Positions 29,335 through 49,810 of a stretch of DNA of 64,000 bases are shown one piece after another. Under the pieces are notes generated by a model, which did no database searches, was not told the origin of the DNA, and was given only the letters and a program-made list of their open reading frames with translations. The stretch covers positions 4,946 to 68,945 of the forward strand of contig JBGSYJ010000069.1 in NCBI GenBank assembly GCA_041750915.1. The letters are read 5' to 3'. Each line of letters starts with the position of its first letter. Positions within the stretch are counted from its first letter, which is position 1. The DNA is from Thermoanaerobaculia bacterium. Its GTDB lineage: Bacteria > Acidobacteriota > Thermoanaerobaculia > Gp7-AA8. The translations under genes were made by a program, and so were the position numbers.

Positions 29335-29540
29335 GCTCTCATTCCCCTCTCCCCGTGTGAACGGGGAGAGGGGCAAGGGGAGAGGGGCCGCGCAAGCAAT
29401 TCGAATGTAGCCGACCGCAATGAGTGCCGCAAGCTCGCAACGCCCCTCTCCCGGCGCGCGACACTCCGCAAAGCCTTGAAGTCTGCGCGAACGACGCGCG
29501 CCACCCTCTCCCCGACTTCGCGGGGAGAGGGGAGCACGTC
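29335..29540. repeat. 210-bp multi-hairpin repeat (CCCTCTCCCC...GGGGAGAGGG units), copy 1
   Basis: Four GC hairpins. It matches 49590-49810 in inverted orientation over about 200 bp. Confidence 0.65.
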
Positions 29541-29603
29541 GCCAATGGCGGCAGCTCTTCCACTTGCCGCCCACGATCAAGACTGCGAGAATCAGCCCTT
29601 CCC

Positions 29604-30977
29604 ATGCGAGCACCGATTCTCTTCATCCCTGGTTTCTCCGCAACCGAGTTGCGGGAGCCGGGAGGCAGACTCGTCTATCCGCCATCGATGCAGACGCTCG
29701 CCGATCCGAAGCGGAAGGCGCGGTTCATCCGGAACGTTCTCGACTCAGACGCCCTCGTTGCCGGCGAGCCGATCCGCGACGTCTTCTTCGGGCTCGCGAA
29801 ACAGGCGCAGTCGCTTTATGACGTGCTCAGACTTTACGGCTACTCGACCGCGAATCGCGACGAGTTCATCGCCGTCGGCTGGGACTGGCGCAGGGCGATC
29901 GATGACGACGCTGTAACCCGCGATCTCGACGCTGCGCTGGCGTCGCTGGCGCAGGCAGGAAAAGTCATCGTGATCGCGCACTCGGCCGGGGGACTGTTGC
30001 TCCGGCGTTATCTCGAGCTCCATCCTCATCGCGCCGATTCCATCTCCCACATCGTCGGGTTCGGCGTTCCGTGGGGCGGAACGTTGAAAGCGTTCCGTTA
30101 CATCGCGAAGGGGGAGAAGTTCGGTTTCCTCTCGGCGAGCCTGAACGCGACGGAGACGCGCACGGTGATGCAGCATGCGCAGGCGGGCTACGACCTTCTC
30201 CCGCCGCCCGGCCTGGCGAACGCCGCCGCTGCTGACCTTCCCCCTCCGCTCGTCTTCGAAAATGGCGAGCCCGTCTCGCCGGCAGTCGCCGTGTCGTGGA
30301 TCCGCGCCGCCGACGCGGCGATCGTGCAGCCGATGGCCGGGCATGCAACCCGGCTCGTCCGGCTCCCGGAGATCACGCTTCCCGGCACCGCAACGCCTCC
30401 GATCACGAACGTCGTCGGCTTCGGAGCGACGACGGACGTCCGGGCGACGATCCGCGGTCCCGGCAAAGTCGATTTCGAAAAATCGGATGAAGGCGACGGC
30501 ACTGTACCTCTTGCTTCGGCACAATGGATTCGTGGGGCGGATGTGCGAACGTTTCACGTCCCGATCGGCGGCTATCCGACGGCCGGGATTCCGACGTATC
30601 ACGCCCAGCTGTGGGATGCGCCGCCGCTGCTCGAGATCTTCGACCAGTTGTTGCTCGGGATCGCTCCGGGTGCGTACGTTGCCGCCGCGCTCGACACCGA
30701 CGATGCTTCGGCCGGCGGCACGAATGGCCTTCGCGTCCGCATCGCCGCTGCCGCTCACAATGGCGCGCCTTTGCCGTTGCTGAAGGTCACGTTTCACGGT
30801 CTCCGGCAGAAGGTGACGAGATCGCTCACGAATCGCGTGCGAGCGACCGTTGAACTGCCGAAGTCCGTTCTGCCTCCTTATGCAGGGAGTCCCTTCGTCC
30901 GTTTCGAGGCAGTGCTTCAGTGGAGCAGCGGCAGCACGAAGGAAACCCGCGAGCTCCCCCTGATCTACCGCAGGTGA
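29604..30977 (+). CDS. Alpha/beta-hydrolase, lipase-like (PGAP1/LCAT-like)
   Basis: PILFIPGFSATEL; VIVIAHSAGGLL nucleophile elbow. I chose the start at MRAPILF. Confidence 0.7.
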   Translation: MRAPILFIPGFSATELREPGGRLVYPPSMQTLADPKRKARFIRNVLDSDALVAGEPIRDVFFGLAKQAQSLYDVLRLYGYSTANRDEFIAVGWDWRRAIDDDAVTRDLDAALASLAQAGKVIVIAHSAGGLLLRRYLELHPHRADSISHIVGFGVPWGGTLKAFRYIAKGEKFGFLSASLNATETRTVMQHAQAGYDLLPPPGLANAAAADLPPPLVFENGEPVSPAVAVSWIRAADAAIVQPMAGHATRLVRLPEITLPGTATPPITNVVGFGATTDVRATIRGPGKVDFEKSDEGDGTVPLASAQWIRGADVRTFHVPIGGYPTAGIPTYHAQLWDAPPLLEIFDQLLLGIAPGAYVAAALDTDDASAGGTNGLRVRIAAAAHNGAPLPLLKVTFHGLRQKVTRSLTNRVRATVELPKSVLPPYAGSPFVRFEAVLQWSSGSTKETRELPLIYRR

Positions 30978-31046
30978 ATGACCGGTGGATCGAGACTCAG
31001 AAGCAATGGCCTCGAGCTAAGGCGCGAAGGTTCATACGCGGGGCCC

Positions 31047-33668
31047 TCAGAAATTCACTGAGATTCGCGAGTAGAGGAACCGGCCATTCATCCCGAACGG
31101 GGAATTCCTCGGGTAGGTGAAGATCCCGAGGTTGGCGTCCGGCCCGATATTCTCATCGGGAAATGTGTCGAAGATGTTCTGGCCGCCGACCGCCACGGTG
31201 TATCGATCCAGTTTGTAAGAGAGCTCCAGATCCGTCACCCATTCCTGCCCGAATGTCTGATCGGACGCAGGGGGATTGGTGAAACTGCAGTACTCTCCAT
31301 AGCGGCTCGTGCGAATGTTTCCGCCCAGCCTGCTTCGGTTCCAGTCTGCCGACAGCCGTACGTTGTCTTCCGGTTGGGCACATTCAGTAAGCCGTCGGAC
31401 CACGCGATCGAACAGGACCGCTTCGAATCCAGCCAGCTGAGGAGGCGTGTCGGCGATCCTGACCACGTCAGTCTCGTTGCGGTTGTAGCCCCCGGAAAGC
31501 GTGAAGTTCCCCAGGGCGGCGGTATTCAGCTGCCACGTGGAAACCAGATCGAAGCCCGTCGTTTCGGTGTCGATGGCATTGGTGAAAAAGCGCCCGCCAT
31601 TGGCTCCCAGGGGGCGAAGGAGATCTGCGATGCGGTCTCCGGTGAAGTTTCCGGACAGGACGATCCGATCGTCTATGTCGATTCGATAGACATCCACCGC
31701 GACCTCGAACGTGGGGGTCGGATCCCACACGACGCCCGCGCTGAGCTGAGTCGATTCTTCGGGACGAAGGGGTTGCGCTCCGAGAGCCTGCGCCTGTGGG
31801 CTTCCGACCGTGAAGGTCGCGACTTCGAATGGTGTGAGCACTCCTGCCAGGTTCAGAAACGTTGTGCTGGTACTCGAGAAGAATGACTGGCCCAGGGACG
31901 GAGCGCGGAAGCCGGTGCTCGCCGAGCCGCGAAACACCACTCTGTCGACCGGTTCGACACGGACCGTTAGCTTTCCGTCGCTGGTGCTGCCGAAGTCATC
32001 GAAATCTTCGTATCGCGCCGCCACACCCAGGCGAAGGCGCGCCAGCACATCCCCCTCGACGTCGACATAGATCGCCTTGCTGTTTCGCGACGTGTTGACG
32101 GCGTTCGACGGCCTGTACCCTGGAAACACCTGTGCGCCGATCTCGGAACGGCCTCCTGCCTGGTTGGGGATCCCGCCGTCGCGATAGGAGTCCGGCTCGC
32201 CTGCAATCTGCTCGAAGCCCTCGCGACGGAACTCGATTCCCGCGGCGACGTTGAGGGGACCCGCCAGTCCAACCTCGTAAGGGCGAGTGATGTCGAAGTT
32301 CCCGATCAAGTGATCGAACTCGAGCGAGCCGGCGTAGAACTCCGTCTTGTTCGGTGGGATGGTCGGACCAAGCGAGGTGTTGAGCGTGTTCGACAGATTG
32401 AAATCGAAAGTGTTCCTTCCGTACTGGCCGCTCAGGTCGTAGAACCACCCCATCATCGTTCCCCGATTCCCGGCCGTGAAGGACGTGTCATTGACCTCGG
32501 GCTCGATGAGGGGCAGGAATCCGAGCGGGTAGATTTCGGGCCGGTTCCTCGCGTCGAGGGCGCGGCGGTAGAACCCACCGTGAGAACCTTCACGCCGGCT
32601 GTATCCGCCAAAAGCGTAGAGGACGTTCGAGCCCTCGACGTTGAGCGGAAGCAGGCCGTGCAGAAACAGCATGGCGTCCTGCGCTTCGGAGTCGCCCCAG
32701 TGATGGTTGGGCTGCGGTACGGCATTGCTGCCGCCATCTCCCGGTGTGACCTGGTCCCTGGGGTCATTCCCCGCCCGGTTCGTCTCACCGCGATCTCGAT
32801 ACTCGACCGTCATGAAGAGCGAGCCGTTGTTGGCGAAGCCGAAGCCTTTGCTCAGACCGATGTCGATCAGCTCACCGTCGCCGTGAGTCGTTGCCCCGCC
32901 TTTTAGGTTCAGGGTCCAGGGAGAGGAACCCGATTTTAGCACCAGGTTGATGACGCCGGCGATGGCATCCGAGCCATACTGGGCGGAAGCTCCATCCCGG
33001 AGGACCTCCACGGTTTCGAGAGCCGAGGACGGAATCGCATTCAGGTCCACGCCGGTCGAGCCGCGGCCGACCGAGTTGTTCACGTTGACCAGAGCGCTGT
33101 TGTGCCGGCGCTTGCCATTGATCAGAACGAGCAGTTGGTCGGGCCCCAGTCCCCGAAGGGTGGCAGGGCGGACCGAGTCGGTGCCGTCGGTGATCGTCGG
33201 ACGCGGGAAATTGAACGACGGTGCGAGCGCCTGAATGATCTGGCTGGTCTCACTCGCCCCGGTCGTTTCCAGTTGCTCCTCAGTGAGCACGTCGACAGGA
33301 ACGGCCTTCTCGTTCGCGGTGCCGATTGCTCTCGAGCCGACAGTGATCTCTTGCCCGAACGCGACCACCAGGGAGAAGTCGCGCTGCACCGTTCCGCTCG
33401 CTACCCTCACCTGCGAAGTCTGGGTTTGAAGGCTCTGGAACGTTACGGACACCGCAACGGTCTGGCCGACGGCTGAAGAGGGCAGCGAGATCCTGTAACG
33501 CCCCGAGCTGTCTGTGGTGGCGATCAGGCCTAGAGAATCGACCGAGACCGTCGCTCCCGGTAGCGACGCACCGTCCGCTCGCGTGGTGACCACACCCTCG
33601 ATCTGCTGTGCGGCGAGAGGAGACCCGAGACAAAGCCCGAAAATAAAGAATCGCGCGAGACGCCTCAT
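31047..33668 (-). CDS. TonB-dependent receptor with an N-terminal carboxypeptidase-regulatory-like domain
   Basis: Signal peptide, CarbopepD_reg (IEGVVTTRADGASLPGATVSV...GRYRI), plug, 22-strand barrel, C-terminal YSRISVNF. Confidence 0.9.
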   Translation of the reverse strand: MRRLARFFIFGLCLGSPLAAQQIEGVVTTRADGASLPGATVSVDSLGLIATTDSSGRYRISLPSSAVGQTVAVSVTFQSLQTQTSQVRVASGTVQRDFSLVVAFGQEITVGSRAIGTANEKAVPVDVLTEEQLETTGASETSQIIQALAPSFNFPRPTITDGTDSVRPATLRGLGPDQLLVLINGKRRHNSALVNVNNSVGRGSTGVDLNAIPSSALETVEVLRDGASAQYGSDAIAGVINLVLKSGSSPWTLNLKGGATTHGDGELIDIGLSKGFGFANNGSLFMTVEYRDRGETNRAGNDPRDQVTPGDGGSNAVPQPNHHWGDSEAQDAMLFLHGLLPLNVEGSNVLYAFGGYSRREGSHGGFYRRALDARNRPEIYPLGFLPLIEPEVNDTSFTAGNRGTMMGWFYDLSGQYGRNTFDFNLSNTLNTSLGPTIPPNKTEFYAGSLEFDHLIGNFDITRPYEVGLAGPLNVAAGIEFRREGFEQIAGEPDSYRDGGIPNQAGGRSEIGAQVFPGYRPSNAVNTSRNSKAIYVDVEGDVLARLRLGVAARYEDFDDFGSTSDGKLTVRVEPVDRVVFRGSASTGFRAPSLGQSFFSSTSTTFLNLAGVLTPFEVATFTVGSPQAQALGAQPLRPEESTQLSAGVVWDPTPTFEVAVDVYRIDIDDRIVLSGNFTGDRIADLLRPLGANGGRFFTNAIDTETTGFDLVSTWQLNTAALGNFTLSGGYNRNETDVVRIADTPPQLAGFEAVLFDRVVRRLTECAQPEDNVRLSADWNRSRLGGNIRTSRYGEYCSFTNPPASDQTFGQEWVTDLELSYKLDRYTVAVGGQNIFDTFPDENIGPDANLGIFTYPRNSPFGMNGRFLYSRISVNF

Positions 33669-33717
33669 CAGTTAGCTCCTTTTTTGAATGCTCGAGTATG
33701 AGCCTCCGTCGTAGGGA

Positions 33718-34155
33718 GTGTCAACGTCATGGCCGTCGCGCTCATCGTCGTCGGCGAAGTCGGGTTTGGTCGCGCAGAGGGTTCACATCCGCGGCGCAGT
33801 CGGCGCGGTCGTCAGCTCGCTCGCCAACGACATCCTGATGCCGATCATCAGCCTCGTTCTACCGGCGGGGGACTGGCGTGAGGCGAAGTACGTGCTTTCC
33901 AGCACGACGGACGCCGCGGGAGTAGTCTCCGAGAGCGCGATTCTCTACGGCCAGTTCGCGGCCGCCGTGCTCGACTTCATCATCATCTCGTTCGTTGTAT
34001 TCATCATCGTGAAGCGCCTCGTCAAGCCGGTGCCCGAGCCGGCGACTCCGCAGATGCGGAAGTGTCCCGAGTGTTTCGAGATGATCCCCGAGGATGCCCG
34101 CCGGTGTCGCGCGTGCACTTCGACCATCGGGGCGGGATCGCAGCTCGCGACCTGA
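33718..34155 (+). pseudogene. 5'-truncated duplicate of mscL (matches 47195..47629 from VGAVVSSLANDIL onward)
   Basis: Nucleotide identity with the intact mscL begins about 90 nt into that gene. The N-terminal amphipathic helix and TM1 are replaced by unrelated sequence. Confidence 0.6.
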
Positions 34156-34421
34156 CGAGCCCCTGCCGCTATTCGAATGTCGACGCGTTCGCGATGCGCT
34201 TCATACTCGAGGTATTCGGCGCCGTCGAAGTAGCGCTCGAAGAATTTGCGAACATCATCACTTCCGGATCGATGGACTTTTCCCCCGCTTGCAGAGACGA
34301 AGGTTTCGCCCGTAGTCTCGCCGATCCAGGCGGAGTCGCGTTCGAAGTGCGCGCGGATTTCCTCTGCGTGCATCTTCAGAAGCGATCGGACTGCGTCATT
34401 GTCCGCGACCTGATCGTTCAA
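33945..34421 (-). pseudogene. Fragment duplicating the C-terminal NTF2-like domain of the 47803..49515 gene
   Basis: AMRSLLKMHAEEIR.HFERD.AWIG.TTGETFVSASGGK..RSGSDDVR.FFERYFDGAEYLEYE is shared with the 570-aa protein; a deletion lies in between. Confidence 0.5.
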
Positions 34422-34666
34422 AGTAAAGAATTTGGGTCGCAGCTTCAGTCGCGCATGCGACCGCCGGTTCTTGGGGCCGCCGGAGCCAATGGGTCAGACG
34501 TCGTCTGACCCTTCGAACTTCACGAAGCAATCAGGCACAGACATCAGCACAGCTTCGAGGGTCGGCCTGACGGGCTGGCGTTGCCTCTCTGGAAGCTCCC
34601 GCCTGCGAACGCGCAACGTCACCAGCCGCTGCATCCTCTCTCTGAACTCCACGCTCCCGAGATTGA

Positions 34667-35185
34667 TTTGCCCGACGACCGATTCCCACTGTTGTACGCG
34701 GCGCCTCGGCCATAAGCGACGACCTGCTCAATATCTACAGAGCTCTGGACGCGCTATCTCCCGGCTTTGGAAAAGTCGAGCGAAGAAGTGACGTTTCCAG
34801 AGACGAATTCCTGCGCGACTACTACTCGCGAAATCGTCCCGTGATTCTGACGCGCCTGATGCAGAACTGGAAGGCAATGTCCCTCTGGACACCTGAATAC
34901 CTCAAAGCACGTTATGGAAGCGAAACCGTTGAAGTCACAGCGAATCGTGATTCAGATCCGGACTACGAGCTGAATCTGGCCCGGCACCGTCGCGAAATTC
35001 TCTTCGGAGATTATGTCGACATGGTGACGACAGGGGGCGAAACGAATGACTACTATCTGGTCGCGAGAAATGAAGTTCTCGAACATGAGCTGCCGCTCCA
35101 CAACGCTGTAGTTCTCACCATTCCGAGCCGCGGCCGGATCGGAACCCGCCGGGCCGCCGTTCGTAGACTTGATATGATCCGATGA
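34667..35185 (+). pseudogene. Truncated cupin-like (JmjC-type) gene remnant
   Basis: The open frame ...DEFLRDYYSRNRPVILTRLMQNWKAMSLWTPEYLKARYG... reads like a cupin-4 N-terminus. It has no canonical start before the GTG at 34841 and ends after about 170 aa. Confidence 0.4.
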
Positions 35186-36135
35186 TGATGGTACCAGGTC
35201 GCGTCGAGATTCCACGGCCCGAGGGATGGTGGGAGGAAGTTCGCGAGGTTCTCGAGTATCCGTTTCTCAGGATCGGCGAGACCGACCTGACACTCGCCCG
35301 GGTCGGCTATTTCATTCTGCTGATCGTAGCGCTTTTCTGGGTGGTGCGGCTGCTCAAGCGCTGGCTCATCAATCGATTTCTTGCGCGCAGCCGCATGGAC
35401 CTGCACGCCCGGCAAGCGGCGGGAACGCTCTTCGGCTACGTGGTGCTCCTCCTCGGCTTCATGGTCATCCTGCAGACGGTGGGGATCGACCTGACTACGC
35501 TGCACGTCGTCGCGGGAGCGGTCGGCGTGGGCATCGGACTCGGCCTTCAGGATGTCGCGAACAATTTCATCAGCGGTCTGATCATTCTGTTCGAGCGGCC
35601 GATCAAGGTCGGCGACAGGATCCTCGTGGGCGATGTCGAAGGCCAGGTCCAGAACATCCGCGCGCGAAGCACGACTGTCATTACGAACGACAACGTCGCG
35701 GTGATCGTGCCGAATTCGAAGTTGATCACCGACAACGTCGTGAACTGGAGCTACAACGACCCTCGAATCCGATTCCGCATTCCGGTCGGTGTCGCCTACG
35801 GATCCGATCCGGAGCTCGTGCTGCGCGCGCTACTCGAAGCTGCCGCGGAGATCGACGATGTGCTGGCTGATCCTGAACCGACCGCGGTCTTCGTGGAGTT
35901 CGGGGACAGCTCGCTGAACTTCGAGCTTCGCGCGTGGACCACGACCCTCCTTCATCTGAAAGCCCGATTCGTGAGCCAGCTGAACCTTTCCATTCACCGC
36001 AAGCTGGCCCATTACGAACTCAGCGTGCCATTCCCGCAGCGCGATCTTCACTTCCGCGGCGGGGAGGTGAACGTCGTTCTGAAGCGTGACGACGCCAACG
36101 CTTCTCCCGCGATGCCCGGACCTGAGAAGGCATGA
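35182..36135 (+). CDS. mscS: Small-conductance mechanosensitive channel (MscS family)
   Basis: GLQDVANNFISGLIILFERPIKVGDRILVGDVEGQVQNI is the MscS signature. Confidence 0.85.
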   Translation: MMMVPGRVEIPRPEGWWEEVREVLEYPFLRIGETDLTLARVGYFILLIVALFWVVRLLKRWLINRFLARSRMDLHARQAAGTLFGYVVLLLGFMVILQTVGIDLTTLHVVAGAVGVGIGLGLQDVANNFISGLIILFERPIKVGDRILVGDVEGQVQNIRARSTTVITNDNVAVIVPNSKLITDNVVNWSYNDPRIRFRIPVGVAYGSDPELVLRALLEAAAEIDDVLADPEPTAVFVEFGDSSLNFELRAWTTTLLHLKARFVSQLNLSIHRKLAHYELSVPFPQRDLHFRGGEVNVVLKRDDANASPAMPGPEKA

Positions 36136-38108
36136 CTTTTCGCCCCTGGCACCGGTTCAAATTCGAGATTGAACGGCTGATCCTGCGCAGTCCGTTTCAC
36201 CGTCTCGCGGTCATCGCGATGGCCGTTGGCGCAGTCTCGTGCGCGGGCGGGTATCTCGCCTATTTCTATGCCGGCGGATTCGCCGACGTTCCCGATGCGG
36301 TCTGGTGGGCGTTTCTGCGTCTCACTGACCCTGGCTACCTCGGCGACGATGTCGGCAACGTCGCACGCGTCATTTCGACGACCCTCACGATTCTCGGATA
36401 CGTTCTGTTTCTGGGCGCGCTCATCGCGATCATGACCCAGAGTCTCAATCAGTCCATCCAGCGGCTGCAGCAGGGACTGACTCCGATCGTCGAGAACAAC
36501 CACTTCCTGATTCTAGGCTGGACCAGCACGACGCCGACTCTCGTGGAGGAGCTGATCCTCTCCGAGGGCCGCGTGAAGCGGTTTCTGAAGCTGCGAGGTA
36601 CGGGGCGTCTTCGGATCGTGATTCTGATCGAGGACCTCGGGCCGGAAATCGTCCAGGACCTCCAGGACCGGCTTGGAAGCCACTGGAACTCGCGTGAGAT
36701 CATCGTGCGCTCGGGCACTCCGCTGCGCCTCGAGCATCTCGAGCGCGTCGATTTCCTGCACGCCGCCGCAATCATGTTGCCGCTCCCCGATGTCAGGACC
36801 GAGAACACGTTCGCTCGCGACGAGCGGACGATCAAGGTGCTGCTTTCGATCTCGAGCTCGGCGCGCCAGAAGAAGGCTGATGAGGTTCCGATGATGGTCG
36901 CAGAATTGATGGACGGGCGGAACGTCTCTCTGGCTCAGCGCGCCTACGGTGGCCCGATCGAGATCCTGGCGGGCGACCTGCTGGTCAGCCGGCTGATTGC
37001 GCAGAACGTCCGGCACGCGGGACTCTCGCCGGTCTACGCGGAGCTGCTCTCGCACTCGGAAGGGAATGAGATTTACCTGCGGGAGTGGCCGGAGCTCGCA
37101 GGCCGGCGCTTCGATGAAGTAGGCGATGCTTTTTCTCACGCGATCGTGCTGGGTGTGCTTCGAATGTCAGGCAGGGGCTTCGATCCGTTGATGCTGCCGG
37201 AGGGCGACCTGGTCATCGAAGCGGGCGACCGCCTCGTGATGGTCGCACAGAGTTATGAAGAGAGTGCGCCGGAGCGCCACTGGAGCGTCAGACCTCGGGC
37301 CGCGGCACCGCATTCGTATCCGCTGTCACAGAAGCGAAGCCGGCGTGTTCTTCTGCTGGGATGGAACCACAAGGTGCCAGCGCTCGTGGCGGAGCTCGCG
37401 CGGTACGGATCCGAGTCGTTCGAAGTCGACGTGGTGTCGCTCGTGAAGCCGGAGGATCGCGCGACTCATCTTCGCCGGCACGGGATCGGCGATGACGCGC
37501 TCGAGCTCCGTAATCTGGAAGCCGACTTCACATCGAGCGTCGAGCTGCGAGGCCTGAAGCCCGAGGCGTACGACAATGTGGTGATCCTCGCGAGCGACCG
37601 GATGGATTCCGAGGTGGAGAGCGATGCCCGCACGATTCTGGGGTTTCTGCTGCTCGACGAGATCCTCACGGGACGCGCTGTTCGTCCGGAAGTTCTGGTG
37701 GAACTGATGGACGCGGACAACGTTCCACTTCTCCAGGGGCGCGCGGACGTGCTGATCAGTCCATTGATTCTCGCGCATATGCTCTCGCAGGTCGCGCTGC
37801 GCCGGGAGCTGCGTGTCGTCTTTGACGAGATGTTCGGCTCCACGGGCGTCGAGATCTCGCTCCGTCCGGCGAGCGATGTGATTTCTCCCGGCGAGACGGT
37901 CGAGTGGGGCGATCTGTCGCGCAGAGTCGAATGCGGCCGCGAGATCGCACTGGGAATGCGCAGAGGCGGCGAGCTGCCGAAGATCAATCCTCCGCGCAAC
38001 AGCCGCTGGAGCTTTTCGGAGGGTGATGAATTGCTGGTGCTCACCCGCAACCTGTCTGCGGGCGCGGAGGTTCCTTCGGCGACGAGTCGCCGGTCTTCCA
38101 GAAAATGA
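36132..38108 (+). CDS. CASTOR/POLLUX-like ion channel with two RCK/TrkA-N-like domains
   Basis: N-terminal transmembrane helices with a pore-like segment, then NHFLILGWTSTTPTLVEEL and RVLLLGWNHKVPALVAEL RCK starts. Four nucleotides overlap mscS. Confidence 0.7.
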   Translation: MTFRPWHRFKFEIERLILRSPFHRLAVIAMAVGAVSCAGGYLAYFYAGGFADVPDAVWWAFLRLTDPGYLGDDVGNVARVISTTLTILGYVLFLGALIAIMTQSLNQSIQRLQQGLTPIVENNHFLILGWTSTTPTLVEELILSEGRVKRFLKLRGTGRLRIVILIEDLGPEIVQDLQDRLGSHWNSREIIVRSGTPLRLEHLERVDFLHAAAIMLPLPDVRTENTFARDERTIKVLLSISSSARQKKADEVPMMVAELMDGRNVSLAQRAYGGPIEILAGDLLVSRLIAQNVRHAGLSPVYAELLSHSEGNEIYLREWPELAGRRFDEVGDAFSHAIVLGVLRMSGRGFDPLMLPEGDLVIEAGDRLVMVAQSYEESAPERHWSVRPRAAAPHSYPLSQKRSRRVLLLGWNHKVPALVAELARYGSESFEVDVVSLVKPEDRATHLRRHGIGDDALELRNLEADFTSSVELRGLKPEAYDNVVILASDRMDSEVESDARTILGFLLLDEILTGRAVRPEVLVELMDADNVPLLQGRADVLISPLILAHMLSQVALRRELRVVFDEMFGSTGVEISLRPASDVISPGETVEWGDLSRRVECGREIALGMRRGGELPKINPPRNSRWSFSEGDELLVLTRNLSAGAEVPSATSRRSSRK

Positions 38109-38186
38109 ACAACGTGTGTTTCGTAGGGGCGGCCCGCACCTACAAGACACGTAAAGAGGCGAGCACGTCGAAGGGATGGAGAAGCA

Positions 38187-38216
38187 CGTCATCCTTCGCT
38201 TCGCTCAGGATGACAC
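38187..38216. repeat. Half copy of the type I element (right arm only)
   Basis: GTCATCC-TTCGCTTCGCTCAGGATGACAC. Confidence 0.4.
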
Positions 38217-40997: not shown

Positions 40998-41063
40998 TGC
41001 TTTTGCGAGATGTTCACTCGTTGGGAGTGGCGCGATCCTCGTCCGTTTTGGAGAATGACATTC

Positions 41064-42365
41064 ATGAAGAGACTCGCCATTCTCCTGTCCGCCTCACTTC
41101 TCGCCACCTCCGCCGTTCACCCGGCCGACCCGCCGCTCGCGCCGCGGATCGACGCATATCTGCGGCCCTACATCGACCAGAACGCATTCAGCGGAGTCGT
41201 TTTCGTCGCGAAGGGCGATGAGGTATTGTTCGAGAAGGCCTACGGGATGGCGAACTACGAGTTCGGCGTGCCGAACCGGCCCGACACGAGATTCGCGATC
41301 GCCTCGATCACCAAGCGTTTCACCGGCATCATCCTGCTGAAGCTCATCGCGGCTGAGAAGCTGGCACTTGACGACAAACTGTCGAAGTGGGCTCCAGATT
41401 TTCCATCAGCCGAGAAGATCACGGTGGAGCACCTCGCGAGACACCGCTCGGGTGTGCGTGACCCGGATGATCTCCGCCGGCTCATCCGGATGAATCACTC
41501 CGCCGCAGCCGTCGTCGATCACCTGAAGGAGAAGCCCCTCGGCAGCGAGCCGGGCGAGACGTATTCGTATACGACGGCCAACTACGCAATCCTCGGGCAC
41601 ATCATCGAGAGGGTGACGGGAAAGAGCTTCGACCAGGTCGTGCATCAGTACGTGTACGAGCCGGCAGGAATGAAGGACTCTGGGGAGCTCACGACGACGA
41701 CTGTCGTGCCGCGGCTCGCGACCGGCTATATGCCCGACCCATATGGCCGCGGCATTTCGGTTTGCGGGCCGGAGGATACTTCATGGAAGATCGCAGGCGG
41801 CTCGTCGTACTCGACCGCTCGCGACCTTCACCGGTTTGCGCGCGCCTTCTACCGCGCCAAGCTCGGCGTCGACCCCGCGGAGCTCGGGGGAACCTCGGAG
41901 GTCCACGGCCGACAGGCGTACTCATCGAACGGGAGCTTTCCGGGCGCCGGTGCGAACCTCCTCTACTTCCCCGAGGAAGAAGTCACACTGGTCGTTCTGA
42001 CGAACAACTACGCGACGATCGCACAGACAGCCACGCGCGACATCGCCGGAACGTACTTCGGCGAGAAAGTAGCCGATCCGACCGTGAAGCTCGCGAGCAA
42101 GCCGGCGCCGATGGACCCGAGAGTCTTCGGCGCGTACGAAGTCGAAGGGCGGACGTGGACGTTTACGATCGCGCTGGAGCAGGGCGCTCCCGTGCTCTCG
42201 TACAACGCGATGCGCAAGAGCGCTCTCCGGCGGATCGACGGCGACACCTGGTTCTCGCCGCTGGACTGGGCGAAATTCCGCCTGCGCTTCGACGAAGCGG
42301 GTCAATTCGAAGGGGCGATGATTCTGCCCGGAGACGATGAGGGTCTGAAGCTGATACGCAGGTAG
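41064..42365 (+). CDS. Beta-lactamase/penicillin-binding-protein family serine hydrolase (class C-like)
   Basis: Signal peptide and the ASITK (SxxK) motif. Confidence 0.8.
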   Translation: MKRLAILLSASLLATSAVHPADPPLAPRIDAYLRPYIDQNAFSGVVFVAKGDEVLFEKAYGMANYEFGVPNRPDTRFAIASITKRFTGIILLKLIAAEKLALDDKLSKWAPDFPSAEKITVEHLARHRSGVRDPDDLRRLIRMNHSAAAVVDHLKEKPLGSEPGETYSYTTANYAILGHIIERVTGKSFDQVVHQYVYEPAGMKDSGELTTTTVVPRLATGYMPDPYGRGISVCGPEDTSWKIAGGSSYSTARDLHRFARAFYRAKLGVDPAELGGTSEVHGRQAYSSNGSFPGAGANLLYFPEEEVTLVVLTNNYATIAQTATRDIAGTYFGEKVADPTVKLASKPAPMDPRVFGAYEVEGRTWTFTIALEQGAPVLSYNAMRKSALRRIDGDTWFSPLDWAKFRLRFDEAGQFEGAMILPGDDEGLKLIRR

Positions 42366-42559
42366 AGTCGAAAAAGTACGACTCCTGAAGTCCGCACCGA
42401 CGTCCAAGGCGCCCGTCGATCTCGATCCTTCTCCCCGTTCGCACGGGGAGGGAATGCGCGCAGCGCATGTTCGTCCTGTGAACTCCTACTGGAGTAGTTG
42501 ACAATCCTTCCCTGAAACCCTATCTTGTGAATCGTCGTACTACACGAGTAGGAGCTGCG

Positions 42560-42949
42560 ATGGCCATACAGCCGAGGCTTGGAGAGCGGGAGCTCGATAT
42601 CATGCAGGTGCTCTGGGATACGGGAGGCGGAACCGTTTCGGATGTGCACGATCTGCTTCTGACCCGTCGAGGGAGTGTCGCTTATACGACAGTGCAGACG
42701 ATGCTCAACCGGCTCGAGGAGAAAGGGCACGTGCGGCGGGAGAAGGTCGGGCGTGCTTACTCGTACAAGCCGGTGATGAAGGAGCCGGCGGCGGCGAAAG
42801 TCGCCGTGAGGCGTGTGATCGATCGCTTTTTCGGGGGAGATCCGGCCGCGCTCGCGACTCACCTGGTTCAGGGTTCCGTTTCGGAGCGCGATCTCGTCCG
42901 CATCGAGGAGCTCATTGCATCGAGACGGGAAGCGGAGAAGAAGCGATGA
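42560..42949 (+). CDS. BlaI/MecI/CopY-family transcriptional repressor
   Basis: ELDIMQVLWDTGGGTVSDVHDLLL...YTTVQTMLNRLEEKGHV is a Penicillinase_R winged helix. Confidence 0.85.
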   Translation: MAIQPRLGERELDIMQVLWDTGGGTVSDVHDLLLTRRGSVAYTTVQTMLNRLEEKGHVRREKVGRAYSYKPVMKEPAAAKVAVRRVIDRFFGGDPAALATHLVQGSVSERDLVRIEELIASRREAEKKR

Positions 42950-44307
42950 GTGCTCTTCCTGCTCTCGCCGCCAATCTCTGGCTCGCAGGCGTTCCGGTGC
43001 TGCTCATCACAGCTGCCTCACTTGCGCTACTTCACAGAGCTCCGGCGCGGCTGCGTTATCTCGCGGCGCTCGCCGGATTCGTCGCCGCGATCGTCGTGCC
43101 GGTTCTGCTGACACGGGAGGCCGCTCCCATTGTCGTGAACGCCGCGGTGCCGGCGACCGCGACCGAATCGTTCGACTCTGCGCTCCTCGTCATTGGGCTC
43201 TGGTTTGCCGGCGCGCTTTTTCTGATTGGACGCGACGTGAGCGCGTATCGGCATCTGCGTCGCGAGGAGCAGGAGTGGATTCCGGCGGGTGAGCTAGGTG
43301 TGGACCCGTCGAAGTTCAGTGTCGTTCTGTCCGTCGGGGGAGCGCCGCGTACGCACGGCCTCCTGCGGCCCGTGATCGTGCTGCCGGAGGAATTGGTGCA
43401 TGCGGAAGCGGAGCTCGTGAGGCTAGTCCTCGCGCATGAGGAGTCGCATGCGCGCTGGCGCGATCCGATGATTCATTCCGCCATCCGCCTCGTGCGGTCG
43501 TTGCTGTGGTTCGCGCTGCCGCTGTGGCTCGCCGAGCGCCTCGTGATCCGGGAACGGGAGGCGGCGGCGGATGAAGCAGCGGTGGCAGCTGAAACGGGTG
43601 AGACGCGATCGCGGTACGCCGAGGCGCTGATCCGGTTCTGCCGCCTCGCTCCACGTCGATCCGCGCTCGCCGTGCAGCTCGGCGCGGCCGCAGATCTCGA
43701 GTACCGCGTGCGGCGGATTCTGCGCGCGTCGACGCGCGCAGGTTCTCTCGCAAGCGCTGTTGGTCTCCTCGGCGCAGGATTCTTTCTCTTCGCGTTCACG
43801 CCGCTGGCGGAGGTTCCTGCGGAAGTCGTCGTCGAGGTTGCAGACGTGCGGGCCGTTCAGAAGCTGGATAACGTGAAGGGTACGAGTGAAGTGCATGCGG
43901 TGATCCGTACAGAGTTCGAGAGTGCCATTGAGAAGAAGATTCGAGCCACGACGTCACGCGCGACTGGTTCGGCGAAGATCGACGACCCGGATGTTGTGGC
44001 GGTTGCGACGGTTGAGGCCATCGCATCCGATAACCCTGTTGCCGAAGGGGCTCCCTCACCCCTGACCCCTCTCCCGCCGGGAGAGGGGAAAGAGATTGCG
44101 CCTATCGTCGCTCCTGAGATCGACGATGAAGTGATCGTGATTCGTGACGTTCACAGGCATCGGCATGTGGATCGCCGCGACGGGAAACGGGGCGAAGAAG
44201 AAATCGCGAACGATACGGGGCGGAGCAGGCATCCGGTCGCACTCTTTCACCGCGGGGTGACCTCGCCCATCAAGCGATTCGTACGGCGGGTGAGGGGATC
44301 GTCGTGA
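42946..44307 (+). CDS. BlaR1-like M56 peptidase signal transducer without a recognisable C-terminal sensor domain
   Basis: Four-TM M56 domain with VLAHEESHARWRDP (HExxH). The C-terminal ~150 aa are low-complexity and include a translated copy of the 36-bp repeat (44056-44091, PSPLTPLPPGEG). Confidence 0.8.
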   Translation: MSALPALAANLWLAGVPVLLITAASLALLHRAPARLRYLAALAGFVAAIVVPVLLTREAAPIVVNAAVPATATESFDSALLVIGLWFAGALFLIGRDVSAYRHLRREEQEWIPAGELGVDPSKFSVVLSVGGAPRTHGLLRPVIVLPEELVHAEAELVRLVLAHEESHARWRDPMIHSAIRLVRSLLWFALPLWLAERLVIREREAAADEAAVAAETGETRSRYAEALIRFCRLAPRRSALAVQLGAAADLEYRVRRILRASTRAGSLASAVGLLGAGFFLFAFTPLAEVPAEVVVEVADVRAVQKLDNVKGTSEVHAVIRTEFESAIEKKIRATTSRATGSAKIDDPDVVAVATVEAIASDNPVAEGAPSPLTPLPPGEGKEIAPIVAPEIDDEVIVIRDVHRHRHVDRRDGKRGEEEIANDTGRSRHPVALFHRGVTSPIKRFVRRVRGSS

Positions 44308-44326
44308 TGTGATCGAATCGAGGGAG

Positions 44327-44355
44327 GGGATCCTTCGCTTCGCTCAGGATGACAC
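44327..44355. repeat. Half copy of the type I element
   Basis: GGGGATCCTTCGCTTCGCTCAGGATGACAC. Confidence 0.4.
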
Positions 44356-44461
44356 GAAGGTTTACCGCGCTGTGCGCGACGTCTTCTGATTCCAGTTTCA
44401 CAATCATTCATCAATCCATCAATCGACGAAATCCGGCCACCGCCGGGTAAAGGGGAGAACT

Positions 44462-46297: not shown

Positions 46298-46440
46298 ACT
46301 CACTCCTCGGGTGTGGATTGTTTCGCAGTGAGGGAAGAATCACAAGACGTGGGGACATTGACAGGTAGCCCGTCCGGTACGCGTTCAGTGTGACGGTGAA
46401 TCTGGGTCACAGAGGATTCCATTGGTTTAAGCTGCGACGG

Positions 46441-46528
46441 TGTCATCCTGAGCGAAGCGAAGGATCCCCTGATTTCTTGCGACAGGCGAGTACTGAGGGG
46501 ATCCTTCGCTTCGCTCAGGATGACACTC
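46441..46528. repeat. Type I palindromic element, copy e
   Basis: Full inverted arms. A direct repeat TAAGCTGC occurs on both flanks (46428-46435 and 46541-46548), which may be a target-site duplication. Confidence 0.7.
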
Positions 46529-46563
46529 GCTCGAGGTGAGCGGGCTAAGCTGCAGGAGGTCGA

Positions 46564-47194: not shown

Positions 47195-47629
47195 ATGATT
47201 GACGAGTTCCGCGGATTCCTCACCAAGACCAACGCGCTCGCCCTGGCAATCGGCGTCATCATCGGTGGCGCCGTCGGTGCCGTCGTCAGCTCGCTCGCCA
47301 ACGACATCCTGATGCCGATCATCAGCCTCGTTCTACCGGCGGGGGACTGGCGTGAGGCGAAGTACGTGCTTTCCAGCACGACGGACGCCGCGGGAGTAGT
47401 CTCAGAGAGCGCGATTCTCTACGGCCAGTTCGCGGCCGCCGTGCTCGACTTCATCATCATCTCGTTCGTTGTCTTCATCATCGTGAAGCGCCTCGTCAAG
47501 CCGGCGCCTGAACCGGCGACTCCGCAGATGCGAAAGTGTCCCGAGTGTCTCGAGATGATCCCGGAGGAGGCCCGCCGCTGCCGCGCGTGCACGTCAACCA
47601 TCGCACCGGGATCGCAGCCAGCGGTCTGA
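47195..47629 (+). CDS. mscL: Large-conductance mechanosensitive channel with a C-terminal zinc-ribbon tail
   Basis: MIDEFRGFLTKTNALALAIGVIIGGAVGAVVSSLANDILMPIISL is canonical MscL. The C-terminal CPEC...CRAC ribbon is additional. Confidence 0.85.
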   Translation: MIDEFRGFLTKTNALALAIGVIIGGAVGAVVSSLANDILMPIISLVLPAGDWREAKYVLSSTTDAAGVVSESAILYGQFAAAVLDFIIISFVVFIIVKRLVKPAPEPATPQMRKCPECLEMIPEEARRCRACTSTIAPGSQPAV

Positions 47630-47666
47630 CGCCACCAGCGCGTCAACTCAAGACCTGCGCAGGAGC

Positions 47667-47757
47667 AAGTGTCATCCTGAGCGTAGCGAAGGATCCCCAT
47701 ACTATTGGCTGGATCGCAGGGCTTCAGGGGATCCTTCGCTGCGCTCAGGATGACACC
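47667..47757. repeat. Type I palindromic element, copy f
   Basis: Arm, loop and the left flank GCGCAGGAGCAAGTGTCATCC are shared with copy h. Confidence 0.7.
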
Positions 47758-47802
47758 TTGTGGCTCGAGGTGACGCCATTGCGTCCTGAAGCCCTCTCTG
47801 TA

Positions 47803-49515
47803 TCACTCGAACGTCGACGCGTTCGCGACGCGCTTCCATGCGCCGTTGTGCCGCTGATAGATCATGATTCCGGCGTAGACGAAGTTCCGCTCGGTGTCAG
47901 GGCCTTCCGCTGACCGGACTACCCGTCTGACCTTCGTGCGCGACAGTACCCAACCCATCGATCCATCGTCCGAGAGGCGAACGACCGGTTCTTCGAGATT
48001 CTCGTACTCGAGGTACTCGGCGCCGTCGAAGTAGCGCTCGAAGAACCTGCGGACGTCATCACTGCCCGAGCGCTGGATCTTTCCTCCGCTCGCCGATACA
48101 AAGGTTTCGCCCGTCGTGTCGCCGATCCAGGCGGCGTCGCGTTCGAAGTGTGAGCGGATTTCCTCTGCGTGCATCTTCAGCAGCGAGCGCATCGCGTCGT
48201 CGCCCGCGACCTGGTCGTTCGGCGGCAGATCGATCGGCAAACGAAGGATGACTGTGTCTTTCAGTTTCCCGATCGGCCAGATCTTCCCATCAGCGAACGA
48301 TCGCAGCTGGCTCCCGGCGACGTAAACCAGGTCGTTTCCGACGATAGTTCCTGTGAGTGGAAAGTCATAAAGAGGATGGTCCTGCTCGAGGACGGCGAAC
48401 CGGGTCACCCGCGACATGTCGTCACTGAGCCAGGCGCGCACGACGCGGCGCGGATCTGAGCCCTGAACGCCGATGAGGCTCCCTTCGTGAAAATAAAGCC
48501 CGTCGATGGCGCCGAGCGTCGCTCCATGAGGAACGTCGATCAGCGTTCGTTTTTTTGTCGCGATGTCGAAGCCGACGACGCCATCGAAATGCGAGGCGGC
48601 GAAGAGCGTCCTGCCGTCGGGTGTCATCGTGATGCCGTTGAACCAGGAGCCGTCCGGCGGGACAAACTGCTCGACCGACTGCGAGCCTGCACGCAGACGG
48701 AAGAGCCCATCCCCTCCGGCGGTGGCGTAAACATCGCCATTCGGCACGAGAACCAGGTCGTTGAAGCAGAACGGCCGTTCGGCGGAGCCGTGGGGGCCGG
48801 GATATTTCGCGATCAACTTCCCGCTGTCGAGCTCGAATCGGAAGATCGCGGCCTGTCCTTTCGTCGGAATGTGCGGAACTTCCATGGGCGGGCTATCGAT
48901 GTTGCAGGAGTTCGCCCAGAGCTCGCGCCGGGAAGGGTCGATCTTCATCCCCAGCACTCCCCAGAGTCCGTCGCGGCGTGAGGGGATGAAGTCGGACACT
49001 TCGCCGCTGGCTGACACGCGAACGATCTTGCTTTTGTACATGCTGCCGACATAGAAGTTGCCGCCCTTCGCGTCAAGGGCGATGTTTTCGGGGATCAGAT
49101 CCTTCTCGAGGAGAAACTCCGTCTCGCTGCGGATGATGGGCGCGGTCCGCGCGCGCATGAGACCTGCCAGCTTCTGGAACCGCGGATCGCTCCTCACCGT
49201 GTCCCACGCAGCGTCGTGCTCGTCGAATCTCATTCCGAAGTCGGTTGCGGTGGCCAGCTCGCGCAACGCATCGTCGACTCTTCCGGCCCGGACGAGGGCG
49301 CGGGAGAGTGCCAGTCGCGTCGATACGGTGCGGGGGAGAACGTTAAGGACCCGCCGGTAGAGATCCGCAGCTTCGATGAAGCGGCCTTGTTCGTACTCTT
49401 TGCCCGCGCGCTGTGACAGCTCGATGGGGTTCTCGGTCGCTGGTTTCTCCTCGCCCGTTGCGGCGGGGGTAAAGGCCGTGACGAGTACGAGTGAAACGAG
49501 CAGAGTGCGCAGCAT
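47803..49515 (-). CDS. Secreted protein with TPR repeats, a beta-propeller (SMP-30/gluconolactonase- or NHL-like) and a C-terminal NTF2-like domain
   Basis: Signal peptide; TPR in the first ~100 aa; a repetitive propeller-like middle; the C-terminal 130 aa are homologous to the 46564 gene product. Confidence 0.7.
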   Translation of the reverse strand: MLRTLLVSLVLVTAFTPAATGEEKPATENPIELSQRAGKEYEQGRFIEAADLYRRVLNVLPRTVSTRLALSRALVRAGRVDDALRELATATDFGMRFDEHDAAWDTVRSDPRFQKLAGLMRARTAPIIRSETEFLLEKDLIPENIALDAKGGNFYVGSMYKSKIVRVSASGEVSDFIPSRRDGLWGVLGMKIDPSRRELWANSCNIDSPPMEVPHIPTKGQAAIFRFELDSGKLIAKYPGPHGSAERPFCFNDLVLVPNGDVYATAGGDGLFRLRAGSQSVEQFVPPDGSWFNGITMTPDGRTLFAASHFDGVVGFDIATKKRTLIDVPHGATLGAIDGLYFHEGSLIGVQGSDPRRVVRAWLSDDMSRVTRFAVLEQDHPLYDFPLTGTIVGNDLVYVAGSQLRSFADGKIWPIGKLKDTVILRLPIDLPPNDQVAGDDAMRSLLKMHAEEIRSHFERDAAWIGDTTGETFVSASGGKIQRSGSDDVRRFFERYFDGAEYLEYENLEEPVVRLSDDGSMGWVLSRTKVRRVVRSAEGPDTERNFVYAGIMIYQRHNGAWKRVANASTFE

Positions 49516-49589
49516 GATCCCTCCGTTGATTCAGGTGTGGCGTTTGTTGTAACGCACGTCCGCCGGTCGCGGGAAGGGGGTTCACCGTT

Positions 49590-49810
49590 TTGTGATTGCA
49601 GTGAGTAGCGACTTCCCTCTCCCCGCGAAGTCGGGGAGAGGGTGGCGCGCGGGAGTCGAGACGACTTTTCGGTTCCGACAGTTCCGCGCGCCGGGAGAGG
49701 GGCGTCCAGGGCTTGCAGCGACTTACTCCAGTTGGCAACATTGGAATGGCCTGCTCGGCCCCTCACCCCTTGCCCCTCTCCCCGTTCACACGGGGAGAGG
49801 GGAATCGCGC
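49590..49810. repeat. 210-bp multi-hairpin repeat, copy 2 (inverted relative to 29335-29540)
   Basis: The reverse complement aligns with copy 1 over about 200 bp, including both terminal hairpins. Confidence 0.65.

Follow-up and report, generated by a model that had tools for sequence, protein, structure and literature searches.

The two inverted repeats that enclose a 20-kb segment of the DNA analysed here, a window of 64,000 nucleotides from a Thermoanaerobaculia bacterium, are probably two unconnected members of a family of non-coding repeats, each about 200 bp long, that are dispersed between genes and specific to one lineage, a group of Thermoanaerobaculia (Acidobacteriota). They appear to be doublets of the TM/BoxC type, and their inverted pairing is incidental. 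The unit was multi-copy, sharp-ended and intergenic, had no fixed orientation and was present or absent at orthologous sites. Order and orientation of the 20-kb segment were the same as in relatives. Thus the inverted pair is not a working inversion switch.

Table 1. Repeat units, their modules and DUF559 cassettes in the window
Feature	Position	Strand	Description
Left four-hairpin unit	29341-29531	+	Divergent intergenic region between an OsmC-like gene (28817-29245, -) and an LCAT-like lipase gene (29604-30977, +)
Left copy, outer module	29344-29388	+	Hairpin 1 CCCCTCTCCCCG-TGTGAA-CGGGGAGAGGGG, CAA, third purine tract GGGGAGAGGGGC; complete triplex-type (TM/BoxC) module
Left copy, second (inner) module	29442-29531	-	Hairpin 4 (29504-29531), GC hairpin 3 as linker, third tract (29442-29452)
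Right four-hairpin unit	49615-49805	-	Between the stop of a Trans_reg_C/alpha-beta-hydrolase gene (49867-51579, -) and the start of a TPR/SnoaL gene (47803-49515, -)
Right copy, parts			Hairpin 1 49773-49802; third tract 49759-49769; hairpin 3 49644-49692; hairpin 4 49615-49642
Right copy, inner module	49615-49702		50-nt linker, which is hairpin 3
Solo TM-type module	44048-44090	-	Within the 3' part of a BlaR1-like ORF (42946-44307); exception to the intergenic rule
DUF559 cassette	54531-55012	-	124-aa gene (54567-54941, -); 50-nt inverted arms 54531-54580 and 54963-55012, 96% complementary
Second DUF559 cassette, degraded	11399-12080	-	Remnant 11543-11848 (-); a stop cuts the N terminus

The inverted pair of about 200 bp that the preliminary description had reported was borne out by blastn within the window, with slightly tighter limits (Table 1); 82.1% of 196 columns were identical (E 9e-50). 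With a family profile these limits widened to 29339-29538 and 49606-49806. In a global alignment 159 of 193 columns were identical and four were gap columns. Most of the identity resided in the only exact-match blocks common to both copies, which measured 40, 21 and 37 nt, while the divergence was located in the spacer and one loop. The four hairpins, also claimed before, folded alike in both copies with a z of about -7 against dinucleotide shuffles, and RNAalifold yielded the identical four for an alignment of eight copies. In the left copy hairpin 3 spans 29453-29502 (GGCGCGCG...CGCGCGCC) and doubles as the linker of the second module, while 'hairpin 2' is the third tract at 29442-29452 paired with 29377-29388. 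The core motif GGGAGAGGG occurred 23 times in the window compared to 0.9 occurrences expected.

Each unit consists of two intrastrand triplex motifs (TM) in inverted orientation; this G/C-rich motif is widespread and corresponds to BoxC in Escherichia coli. TM was defined by Holder et al. (2015, Nucleic Acids Res 43:10126, PMC4666352), who equate TM-ECO with the BoxC repeats of E. coli. They describe TM from hundreds of genomes as strictly intergenic, multi-copy and without strand bias, with stems better conserved than loops, frequent closely spaced inverted pairs and an association with locally variable regions; no association with mobile elements is reported there (PMC4666352). In the modules of our unit a pyrimidine tract is followed by a loop and a purine tract, then by a linker and the mirror purine tract; both third tracts point inward. 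Because one linker is enlarged to a GC hairpin, four hairpins result per unit. The three blocks of a TM were found at 29344-29388 and 49759-49802, where the tracts measure 11-12 nt and the two loops 6 and 3 nt. A strict module finder detected both sites and, in addition, 44053-44088, 54544-54579 and 54964-54999. With the loop limit of 1-6 nt (ITxF) the outer modules passed and the inner ones failed. Their linker of 50 nt makes the inner modules a variant rather than a canonical TM. All eight units were intergenic in mixed contexts and each consisted of an inverted pair. The solo module inside the BlaR1-like ORF was kept at the orthologous position in a related MAG (locus L101, 13517-13554). 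A 24-nt motif was found again in many phyla.

The Thermoanaerobaculia MAG JTS-RE153 contained at least six further full-length copies with 80-89% identity plus one half copy. This adds up to at least eight full units in two genomes, where the source genome is represented by the 64-kb window alone. The ends of the unit were sharp and the flanks of the copies unrelated to each other. Neighbouring genes of the eight copies were divergent, convergent or in tandem, the latter in sense as well as antisense. The left copy had no counterpart in the OsmC/lipase interval of L101 or ahead of the lipase gene of L102 and of L103, and the right copy was missing from the orthologous Trans_reg_C/TPR interval in L186. 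Repeats of the TM class thus turn over quickly among related Acidobacteriota. Block C of the unit (36 nt) had no match in the JGI metagenomes, so the composite unit is rare or absent in that collection. An indirect census of copies, in which a protein database was searched with the unit's 68-aa open translation, gave nothing either. No consistent direct repeat of the kind of a target-site duplication was seen around the eight copies, and divergence of the intergenic regions blurs their insertion points at single-base level. The 8-nt sequence GCAGCTCT flanks the left copy in the window at either side, but 14 nt outside the conserved end. Across the copies stems and two loops were invariant, while the spacers drifted. 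Because even two loops are conserved along with the stems, the unit would spread or persist as a selfish or structural DNA element that is recognised by sequence.

What might recognise it is suggested by two cassettes in the window, in which inverted arms bracket a DUF559 gene or its remnant. In the intact cassette each arm is a TM-type module with the third tract directed towards the gene, and L186 lacks the whole cassette in its orthologous SpoIIE-kinase interval. The degraded cassette has inverted arms of about 135 nt (11399-11533 and 11945-12080) with CCCTCTCCCC/GGGGAGAGGG and GGTGAGGGG tracts as in the unit. The modules of both are variants with a TCA linker and a shorter hairpin and do not reproduce the ends of the four-hairpin unit exactly. 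In loci collected with the motif as a seed (about 740 kb) all four DUF559 matches were within approximately 700 bp of a seed motif. Conversely, 80 loci fetched by DUF559 protein showed 1.41 modules per kb within 300 bp compared to 0.032 per kb beyond 500 bp. Flanking inverted repeats (score >= 20) were present in 43 of 67 metagenomic DUF559 loci (64%) and in none of 56 controls, in a sample that was drawn with the narrow alignment A6 and is biased to the FRRQHPIG subtype. The third tract pointed towards the gene in 41 of 62 modules at DUF559 loci. Bracketing of this kind was seen in the window and in several phyla. DUF559 has a Vsr-like PD-(D/E)XK fold, the nearest solved structure being 3HRL.

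Because DUF559 genes are bracketed by like modules in like topology, the partner enzyme of the repeat may be a DUF559 Vsr-like endonuclease, and the four-hairpin unit a gene-less DUF559 cassette or target site; we put this forward tentatively, at somewhat below an even chance. In such a scheme a DUF559 cassette would consist of the gene and, at either end, a module facing inward. Doublets without a gene, among them the four-hairpin unit and the inverted pairs of TM in E. coli, would then be either non-autonomous derivatives of such cassettes or homing sites for them. In the same tentative manner, and with odds that fall short of even, the TM/BoxC class as a whole might be the cis partner of the DUF559 (YcjD-type) family; the two would then form, beside REPIN/RAYT, a further system of that kind with a PD-(D/E)XK nuclease at its core, in many phyla. 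A literature search, with most subscription journals outside its range, found nothing linking DUF559 or ycjD to BoxC/TM repeats. To our knowledge, origin and spreading mechanism of these repeats have not been known since the 1990s, and we know of no demonstrated activity of DUF559 on such DNA or of its mobilisation. If functional, the partnership would supply a testable enzyme candidate for the origin of BoxC/TM and of unstable loci, and a first function for a very large DUF family including E. coli YcjD. The ycjD gene of E. coli was considered as a clean empty-site case but did not qualify, because strains lacking ycjD have the eefRABCD operon at that place; the two replace one another, which differs from a precise excision. 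The module beside ycjD in K-12 has a topology opposite to that of the cassettes.

The preliminary description had taken the pair as a substrate for inversion of the 20-kb segment and suggested a comparison of synteny. When this was carried out, the left junction (OsmC / lipase-BlaI-BlaR1) was the same in JTS-RE153, and the right junction (MscL-TPR / Trans_reg_C-hydrolase-methyltransferase-SpoIIE-kinase) was the same in scaffold_178 of ROVI19-1. Window positions 19272-54374 aligned with L101 in +/+ orientation throughout, and 47195-58843 were collinear with L186. At neither junction did the relatives show anything other than the arrangement of the window. If the inverted pair recombined homologously and flipped the segment, the population should be polymorphic for its orientation. 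Such recombination could make use of the exact blocks of 40 and 37 nt in the inverted copies, whose lengths come close to the lower limit for RecA-dependent exchange in E. coli. In addition, an inversion would leave all genes intact, since both copies lie between genes, and large indels separate the region from its relatives. Even so we regard this reading as very unlikely. It is opposed by the ancestral arrangement at both junctions in two relatives and by the overall identity of the copies of only 82%. Pfam scans of the genes in the 64-kb window detected no recombinase, invertases included, no transposase and no RAYT. GC skew did not reverse at the repeat bounds (29.4 and 49.7 kb), and a weak dip seen at 26-36 kb is out of register with the segment. 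Moreover, in a multi-copy family chance alone would put about half of all neighbouring pairs in inverted orientation, so this pair is not special and the description's own alternative of a common intergenic element largely applies. The pair fails as a candidate switch; a genome with many dispersed repeats gives rise to such pairs by chance. Rare RecA-mediated inversion via the identical blocks of 37-40 nt may occur. The notion of a rearrangement-prone segment held insofar as the neighbourhood varies among relatives; compared with a related MAG there were differences of 11.4 kb and 4.6 kb, one block absent from the window and an internal duplication of 0.6 kb, with no sign of a flip. The list of enclosed genes was broadly confirmed for the LCAT-like lipase, the TonB-dependent receptor, MscS, MscL, the LytS-type kinase, the LytTR regulator and beta-lactamase/BlaI/BlaR1, with one correction for mscL: the truncated copy lies at 33.7-34.2 kb, and 47195-47629 holds the full-length, syntenic one.

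Strong folding, and a start codon in sense orientation 72 or 97 nt downstream of each window copy, could be taken to mean that the unit is a cis-acting RNA that regulates its neighbouring gene, be it as a structured 5' leader, as a terminator or by stabilising the mRNA. On the other hand, the copies of the related MAG occupy convergent, tandem-antisense and divergent settings without a fixed orientation, the genes adjoining the copies are unrelated, and orthologous genes of relatives lack the unit. Rfam 15 gave no match in the whole window at gathering threshold, which also counts against an RNA element. Intrinsic terminators (GC hairpin plus T-run) were found on neither strand in 29150-29700 or 49450-49950, and sigma-70-like promoters were found around neither copy. 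In the eight copies a double change occurred in only 3 of 57 stem pairs; because the stems are invariant, covariation is uninformative on whether structure or sequence is the conserved feature. We consider regulation in cis by RNA highly improbable. Both window copies lie 5' of genes reading into the 20-kb segment, which leaves some room for a regulatory reading. The unit could also be structural DNA selected by the host, such as a triplex, G-quadruplex, cruciform, protein-binding or nucleoid site or a barrier to replication or transcription, neither selfish nor mobilised and only secondarily associated with DUF559. This agrees with the formation of a triplex in vitro and the in vivo footprint of TM in E. 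coli (PMC4666352), with the occurrence of a 24-nt motif across phyla and the invariant sequence blocks, and with the tract GGGGAGAGGGGCAAGGGGAGAGGGG, a textbook G4 pattern as read from the sequence. Yet presence or absence at orthologous sites among close relatives, together with unrelated flanks, argues against a site-specific host function, and a nuclease gene symmetrically bracketed in 64% of the sampled DUF559 loci has the look of a cassette or mobile unit. Host-selected structural DNA is therefore unlikely in our opinion, and we favor the view of a dispersed TM/BoxC-type repeat.

Compared with known systems, the pair resembles programmed inversions (e.g. PMC9881135) in that a DNA segment is flanked by inverted repeats. 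It differs from them because no invertase is adjacent, the repeats belong to a dispersed family, relatives show a single orientation, and the enclosed 20 kb contain ordinary housekeeping and accessory genes. The likeness to REPIN/RAYT, i.e. REP doublets with their REP-associated tyrosine transposase (Bertels and Rainey 2011, PMC3116915), extends to dispersed short palindromic modules that occur as singlets and inverted doublets, to a single small gene between inverted modules and to gene-less doublets being far commoner than gene-bearing cassettes. Unlike in REPIN/RAYT the bracketed gene is DUF559 instead of a Y1 transposase; Pfam scans of the window genes detected no Y1 (IS200/IS605-like) transposase flanked by repeats, and DUF559 occupies the analogous place. 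MITEs and intergenic mosaic elements (ERIC/IRU, RIME, Correia, BIME) are intergenic elements of 100-250 bp with a terminal inverted structure and strong folding that are present or absent between relatives. Our unit matches them in size, inverted ends, folding, intergenic site and presence/absence. Its ends consist of an inverted hairpin plus purine tract of about 45 nt, on one side interrupted by hairpin 3. In contrast to MITEs, no parent IS with a recognised transposase has these ends, and no consistent target-site duplication was found for the unit; the window contains no transposase, and the only gene-bearing relatives are the DUF559 cassettes with similar, not identical ends. Shared with TM/BoxC are the CCCTCTCCC-type pyrimidine tract, the short loop, GGGAGAGGG, the 3-nt linker and the mirror tract GGG(A/T)GAGGG. 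In contrast to that class the composite unit as a whole is what repeats here, confined to one acidobacterial lineage and with a triplex predicted by motif: two modules are fixed as a unit of about 200 bp with a conserved 55-nt spacer, and one linker is a 50-nt GC hairpin. A class so far described mainly in enterobacteria and cyanobacteria thereby gains a composite form of fixed make-up, in which two modules are combined with a linker hairpin.

Blastn within the window related the left copy of the unit to the reverse complement of the right copy with 82.1% identity over 196 columns (E 9e-50), and 159 of 193 columns were identical in a global alignment. Exact blocks of 40 nt (ATTCCCCTCTCCCCGTGTGAACGGGGAGAGGGGCAAGGGG), 21 nt (ACGCCCCTCTCCCGGCGCGCG) and 37 nt (CGCGCGCCACCCTCTCCCCGACTTCGCGGGGAGAGGG) are common to both copies; the diverged parts are the 55-nt spacer and the third hairpin's loop. 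For either copy, folding predicted four hairpins, with energies of about -118 to -123 kcal/mol and a z of about -7. The inverted four-hairpin repeat pair of the preliminary description thus exists. In the window the 9-mer GGGAGAGGG occurred 23 times vs 0.9 expected, and five other sites carry it within a hairpin. As a sequence pattern, GGGGAGAGGGGCAAGGGGAGAGGGG of the unit matches a G-quadruplex.

The proposal that the enclosed 20-kb segment flips via these inverted repeats was unsupported, both junctions being ancestral-like in relatives. On contig 73 of JTS-RE153 lies a 79%-identical orthologue of the lipase gene that borders the left unit on its inner side, and window 19272-54374 aligned to this contig in one unbroken +/+ series with the shared order GDH, DUF1028, OsmC, lipase, BlaI, BlaR1, hydrolase, SnoaL, MscL, SpoIIE; the two differ by indels only. 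ENA scaffold_178 of ROVI19-1, a second relative with a TPR protein 66% identical to that of the window, keeps the window's order and orientation for MscL-TPR / Trans_reg_C-hydrolase-methyltransferase-SpoIIE-kinase. Because of this arrangement in ROVI19-1 the 4.6-kb indel block, which comprises the TPR/SnoaL gene, the right unit, Trans_reg_C-hydrolase and the methyltransferase, is ancestral, and its presence there together with its precise absence from JTS-RE153 makes it a deletion in the latter. A remnant of the methyltransferase C-terminus is left in JTS-RE153. From the collinearity of both relatives it follows that each junction of the 20-kb segment occurs unrearranged in some relative; the OsmC/TPR and lipase/Trans_reg_C junctions expected from inversion were not seen in JTS-RE153 or ROVI19-1. 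The 64-kb window contains no recombinase, integrase, transposase or RAYT gene, and the GC-skew does not switch at the unit positions. Uninterrupted identity of the pair is only 37-40 nt within 82% overall. Homologous (RecA) exchange between the two copies is possible in principle but should be rare. The repeat pair is real and ordinary, and its inverted arrangement is incidental.

When one genome per species was scanned with a 24-nt stretch taken from the unit, at least 100 loci matched; those listed belong to Chloroflexota, Planctomycetota, Alpha-, Beta- and Gammaproteobacteria, Cyanobacteria, Acidobacteriota and others, and in nearly all of them similarity was limited to ~45 nt. Among the matches listed, the whole ~200-bp unit was present at at least six loci, all in one MAG, Thermoanaerobaculia JTS-RE153 (GCA_041748075.1), with 80-89% identity, plus one half copy. 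JTS-RE153 is a moderately close relative; its genes share ~77% nucleotide identity with those of the window, and the other repeat families of the window also occur there. An exact search of the JGI metagenome collection with the 36-nt block C of the unit gave zero matches, which fits a narrow distribution. Genes around the unit copies were called with a home-made codon-bias gene caller, which placed 8/8 copies between genes: 2 in divergent, 3 in tandem (1 sense, 2 antisense) and 2 in convergent context, and 1 at a contig end. The multi-copy and intergenic nature, named in the preliminary description as an argument against inversion, was borne out by at least eight copies in two genomes, with the whole-unit matches listed outside the window all in a single MAG.

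Alignment of the two window and six JTS-RE153 copies revealed abrupt ends: the copies run from (C)ATTCCCC to GGGAGAGCACGA, and their flanks are unrelated. RNAalifold recovered the four hairpins again. Neither the stems nor the loops of hairpins 1 and 4 vary among the copies, which leaves virtually no covariation; what is conserved is the sequence. The three exact blocks, 98 nt in total and identical in both window copies, are almost unchanged across the eight copies of two genomes with a ~23% difference in coding DNA. Hence we infer that the unit is recognised by its sequence, probably by a protein. The unit had no match in Rfam, and no terminator or promoter consensus was found around its two window copies.

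At orthologous sites the unit comes and goes. The OsmC-lipase intergenic region measures 358 bp in the window vs 201 bp in JTS-RE153, where the unit is absent, as it is 5' of the lipase gene of two other relatives (lipase 74% and 81% identical). In ROVI19-1 the spacer between Trans_reg_C and TPR contains arrays of heptamer and hexamer repeats and no unit. The left and right copies thus appear to represent gain or loss at sites that are conserved in other respects. Intergenic divergence at these sites blocks a base-level insertion point, and no consistent target-site duplication was found around the eight copies. The comparisons show a dispersed repeat between genes, made up of two triplex-motif (TM/BoxC) modules, that turns over at orthologous sites, here around a collinear 20-kb segment with no inversion machinery.

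Several unrelated repeat types seem to have colonised the intergenic regions of the clade. A second dispersed family, GTGTCATCCTGAGCGAAGCGAAGGATCCCC, consists mostly of palindromic doublets (at least 8 sites in 64 kb), and a third has internal inverted arms. A 37-nt perfect repeat of GTTCTGA/GTTGTGA heptamers begins 3 nt past the stop codon of two unrelated genes, in sense orientation both times. The window also has a direct duplication of mscL and downstream sequence (96% identity in 300 bp, 86% in the 219 bp that follow), of which the truncated copy sits in the 11.4-kb block absent from JTS-RE153. A solo triplex-type module lies within the C-terminal part of a BlaR1-like ORF. As this module is conserved at the equivalent place in JTS-RE153, it is a repeat insertion that the coding region tolerates in frame.

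Repeats, indels and DUF559 cassettes. Coordinates are those of the window unless a locus is named (L016, L058, JTS-RE153 loci; L101, JTS-RE153 contig 73; L102, lipase locus of a further relative; L104, E. coli K-12; L186, ROVI19-1 scaffold_178)
Feature	Coordinates	Strand or size	Remarks
Unit, left copy	29341-29531	+	
Unit, right copy	49615-49805	-	
Triplex-motif module of left unit	29344-29388		exact match
Indel	30971-42431	11.4 kb	without counterpart in JTS-RE153 (alignment to contig 73)
Indel	47883-52466	4.6 kb	holds right unit; without counterpart in JTS-RE153 (alignment to contig 73)
Indel, YfhO block			JTS-RE153 only (alignment to contig 73)
Methyltransferase remnant	L101 19754-20026	90 aa	
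GTGTCATCCTGAGCGAAGCGAAGGATCCCC family	7251-7345, 28098-28240, 38176-38222, 44315-44361, 46439-46532, 47631-47781, 52843-52993, 63108-63258		
GTGTCATCCTGAGCGAAGCGAAGGATCCCC family, JTS-RE153	L016, L058, L101 about 13786-13864		
GTGTCATCCTGAGCGAAGCGAAGGATCCCC family, ROVI19-1	L186 3904-3987		spot of the window's DUF559 cassette
Third family, GCGAGGGATCTCCGGCG...GCTCGGGATGACA	3713-3894, 38335-38476, L016 6166-6309	about 80-150 bp	
Heptamer repeat GAGTTGTGAGTTCTGAGTTGTGAGTTCTGAGTGGAAC	49827-49863, 60717-60753	-, +	
Similar heptamer arrays	L186 9455-9520, L101 9830-9862, start of L102		orthologous site (L186); OsmC-lipase spacer (L101)
GCCGTC/GCCGTT hexamers and reverse complement	L186 9540-9935	~400 bp	long arrays forming imperfect palindrome; orthologous to right-unit site
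mscL duplication	33786-34419, 47260-48220		direct
mscL, truncated	33718-34155		without first ~20 residues of MscL profile
mscL, complete	47195-47629		syntenic with relatives
BlaR1-like ORF	42946-44307		
Solo module in BlaR1-like ORF	44048-44090, L101 13517-13554		
DUF559 cassette 1	54531-55012	- (gene)	50-nt inverted arms of TM modules, 96% complementary
DUF559 cassette 2	11399-12080	- (gene)	~135-nt inverted arms, TM modules; gene truncated
ycjD/TM number 9 region	L104 (1349800-1352200) 1405-1440, 1539-1668		

The triplex motif has the form CCCTCTCCC, loop, GGGAGAGGG, 3 nt, GGGTGAGGG (Holder et al. 2015, PMC4666352). E. coli K-12 carries 23 copies, which overlap the older BoxC repeats, are always intergenic without strand bias, have loops less conserved than stems and include five inverted pairs; in vitro the motif adopts an intrastrand triplex (PMC4666352). 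Between E. coli strains these loci vary more than controls do; Holder et al. found no association with mobile elements and left the mechanism open (PMC4666352). One half of our unit contains this module, and the other half, on the opposite strand, is a second one, in which the 50-nt GC hairpin 3 serves as linker. With two opposed modules the four-hairpin unit is a TM doublet in inverted arrangement that repeats as a single fixed entity.

TM modules also flank two genes of the window, both PF04480 (DUF559; E 5e-35 for cassette 1, E 6e-19 for cassette 2). Cassette 1 is absent from the orthologous SpoIIE-kinase spacer of ROVI19-1. Motif-seeded loci of other phyla (~740 kb) yielded only four DUF559 matches, all at most about 700 bp from the seed motif, with modules on both sides in two. 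To remove the ascertainment bias of motif seeding, 80 metagenomic loci were fetched by DUF559 protein similarity alone. There, exact 9-mers amounted to 1.45/kb within 250 bp of the gene vs 0.02/kb beyond 500 bp. A strict finder (pyrimidine-loop-purine-linker-mirror-purine) gave 1.41 modules/kb within 300 bp of the gene vs 0.032/kb beyond 500 bp; 30 of the 80 loci had modules, 18 on both sides, and the third tract was gene-facing in 41 of 62 modules. Comparison of upstream with reverse-complemented downstream flanks detected inverted repeats (score >=20) at 43 of 67 loci vs 0 of 56 controls, which used a distant segment. The arms share a common plan with variations, and their linker often contains a small GC hairpin, e.g. 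CCTCCCC-loop-GGGGAGGGGGACCGCGAAGCGGTGGAGGGG; the inner module of the window's unit has this plan, too. Symmetric bracketing of DUF559 by inverted triplex-type modules was seen across phyla, in the window and among loci L038, L054, L080 and L089 and the protein-fetched L105-L184. A published link between DUF559 and TM/BoxC repeats was not found in the literature searched, the coverage of which was incomplete.

In K-12 the stop of the gene for the DUF559 protein YcjD carries a degenerate TM copy and lies ~170 bp from TM number 9; the orientation differs from that at the DUF559 cassettes. Between ycjD and TM number 9 the ycjD 3' end recurs as a 23-nt duplicate, gaatattctccagcaccgtctcc, and this fragment suggests that another DUF559 copy has left a remnant. 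In ~38% of complete E. coli genomes the eefRABCD operon stands in place of this region, a known polymorphism (PMC12817139). YcjD-type proteins are grouped with Vsr in the PD-(D/E)XK superfamily (PMC1189080), and the nearest solved structure to the DUF559 protein is 3HRL, an uncharacterised endonuclease-like protein. That DUF559 nucleases are the recognising protein, with the doublets as gene-less cassettes or homing targets, is a tentative reading to which we give somewhat less than an even chance. The DUF559 association is more interesting than the inverted pair as stated, itself a modest finding. Taken together, the TM module was already known, and the unit is a newly described, lineage-specific composite variant of it, with a 50-nt GC-hairpin linker in one of its modules in contrast to the 3-nt linker of the published triplex motif.
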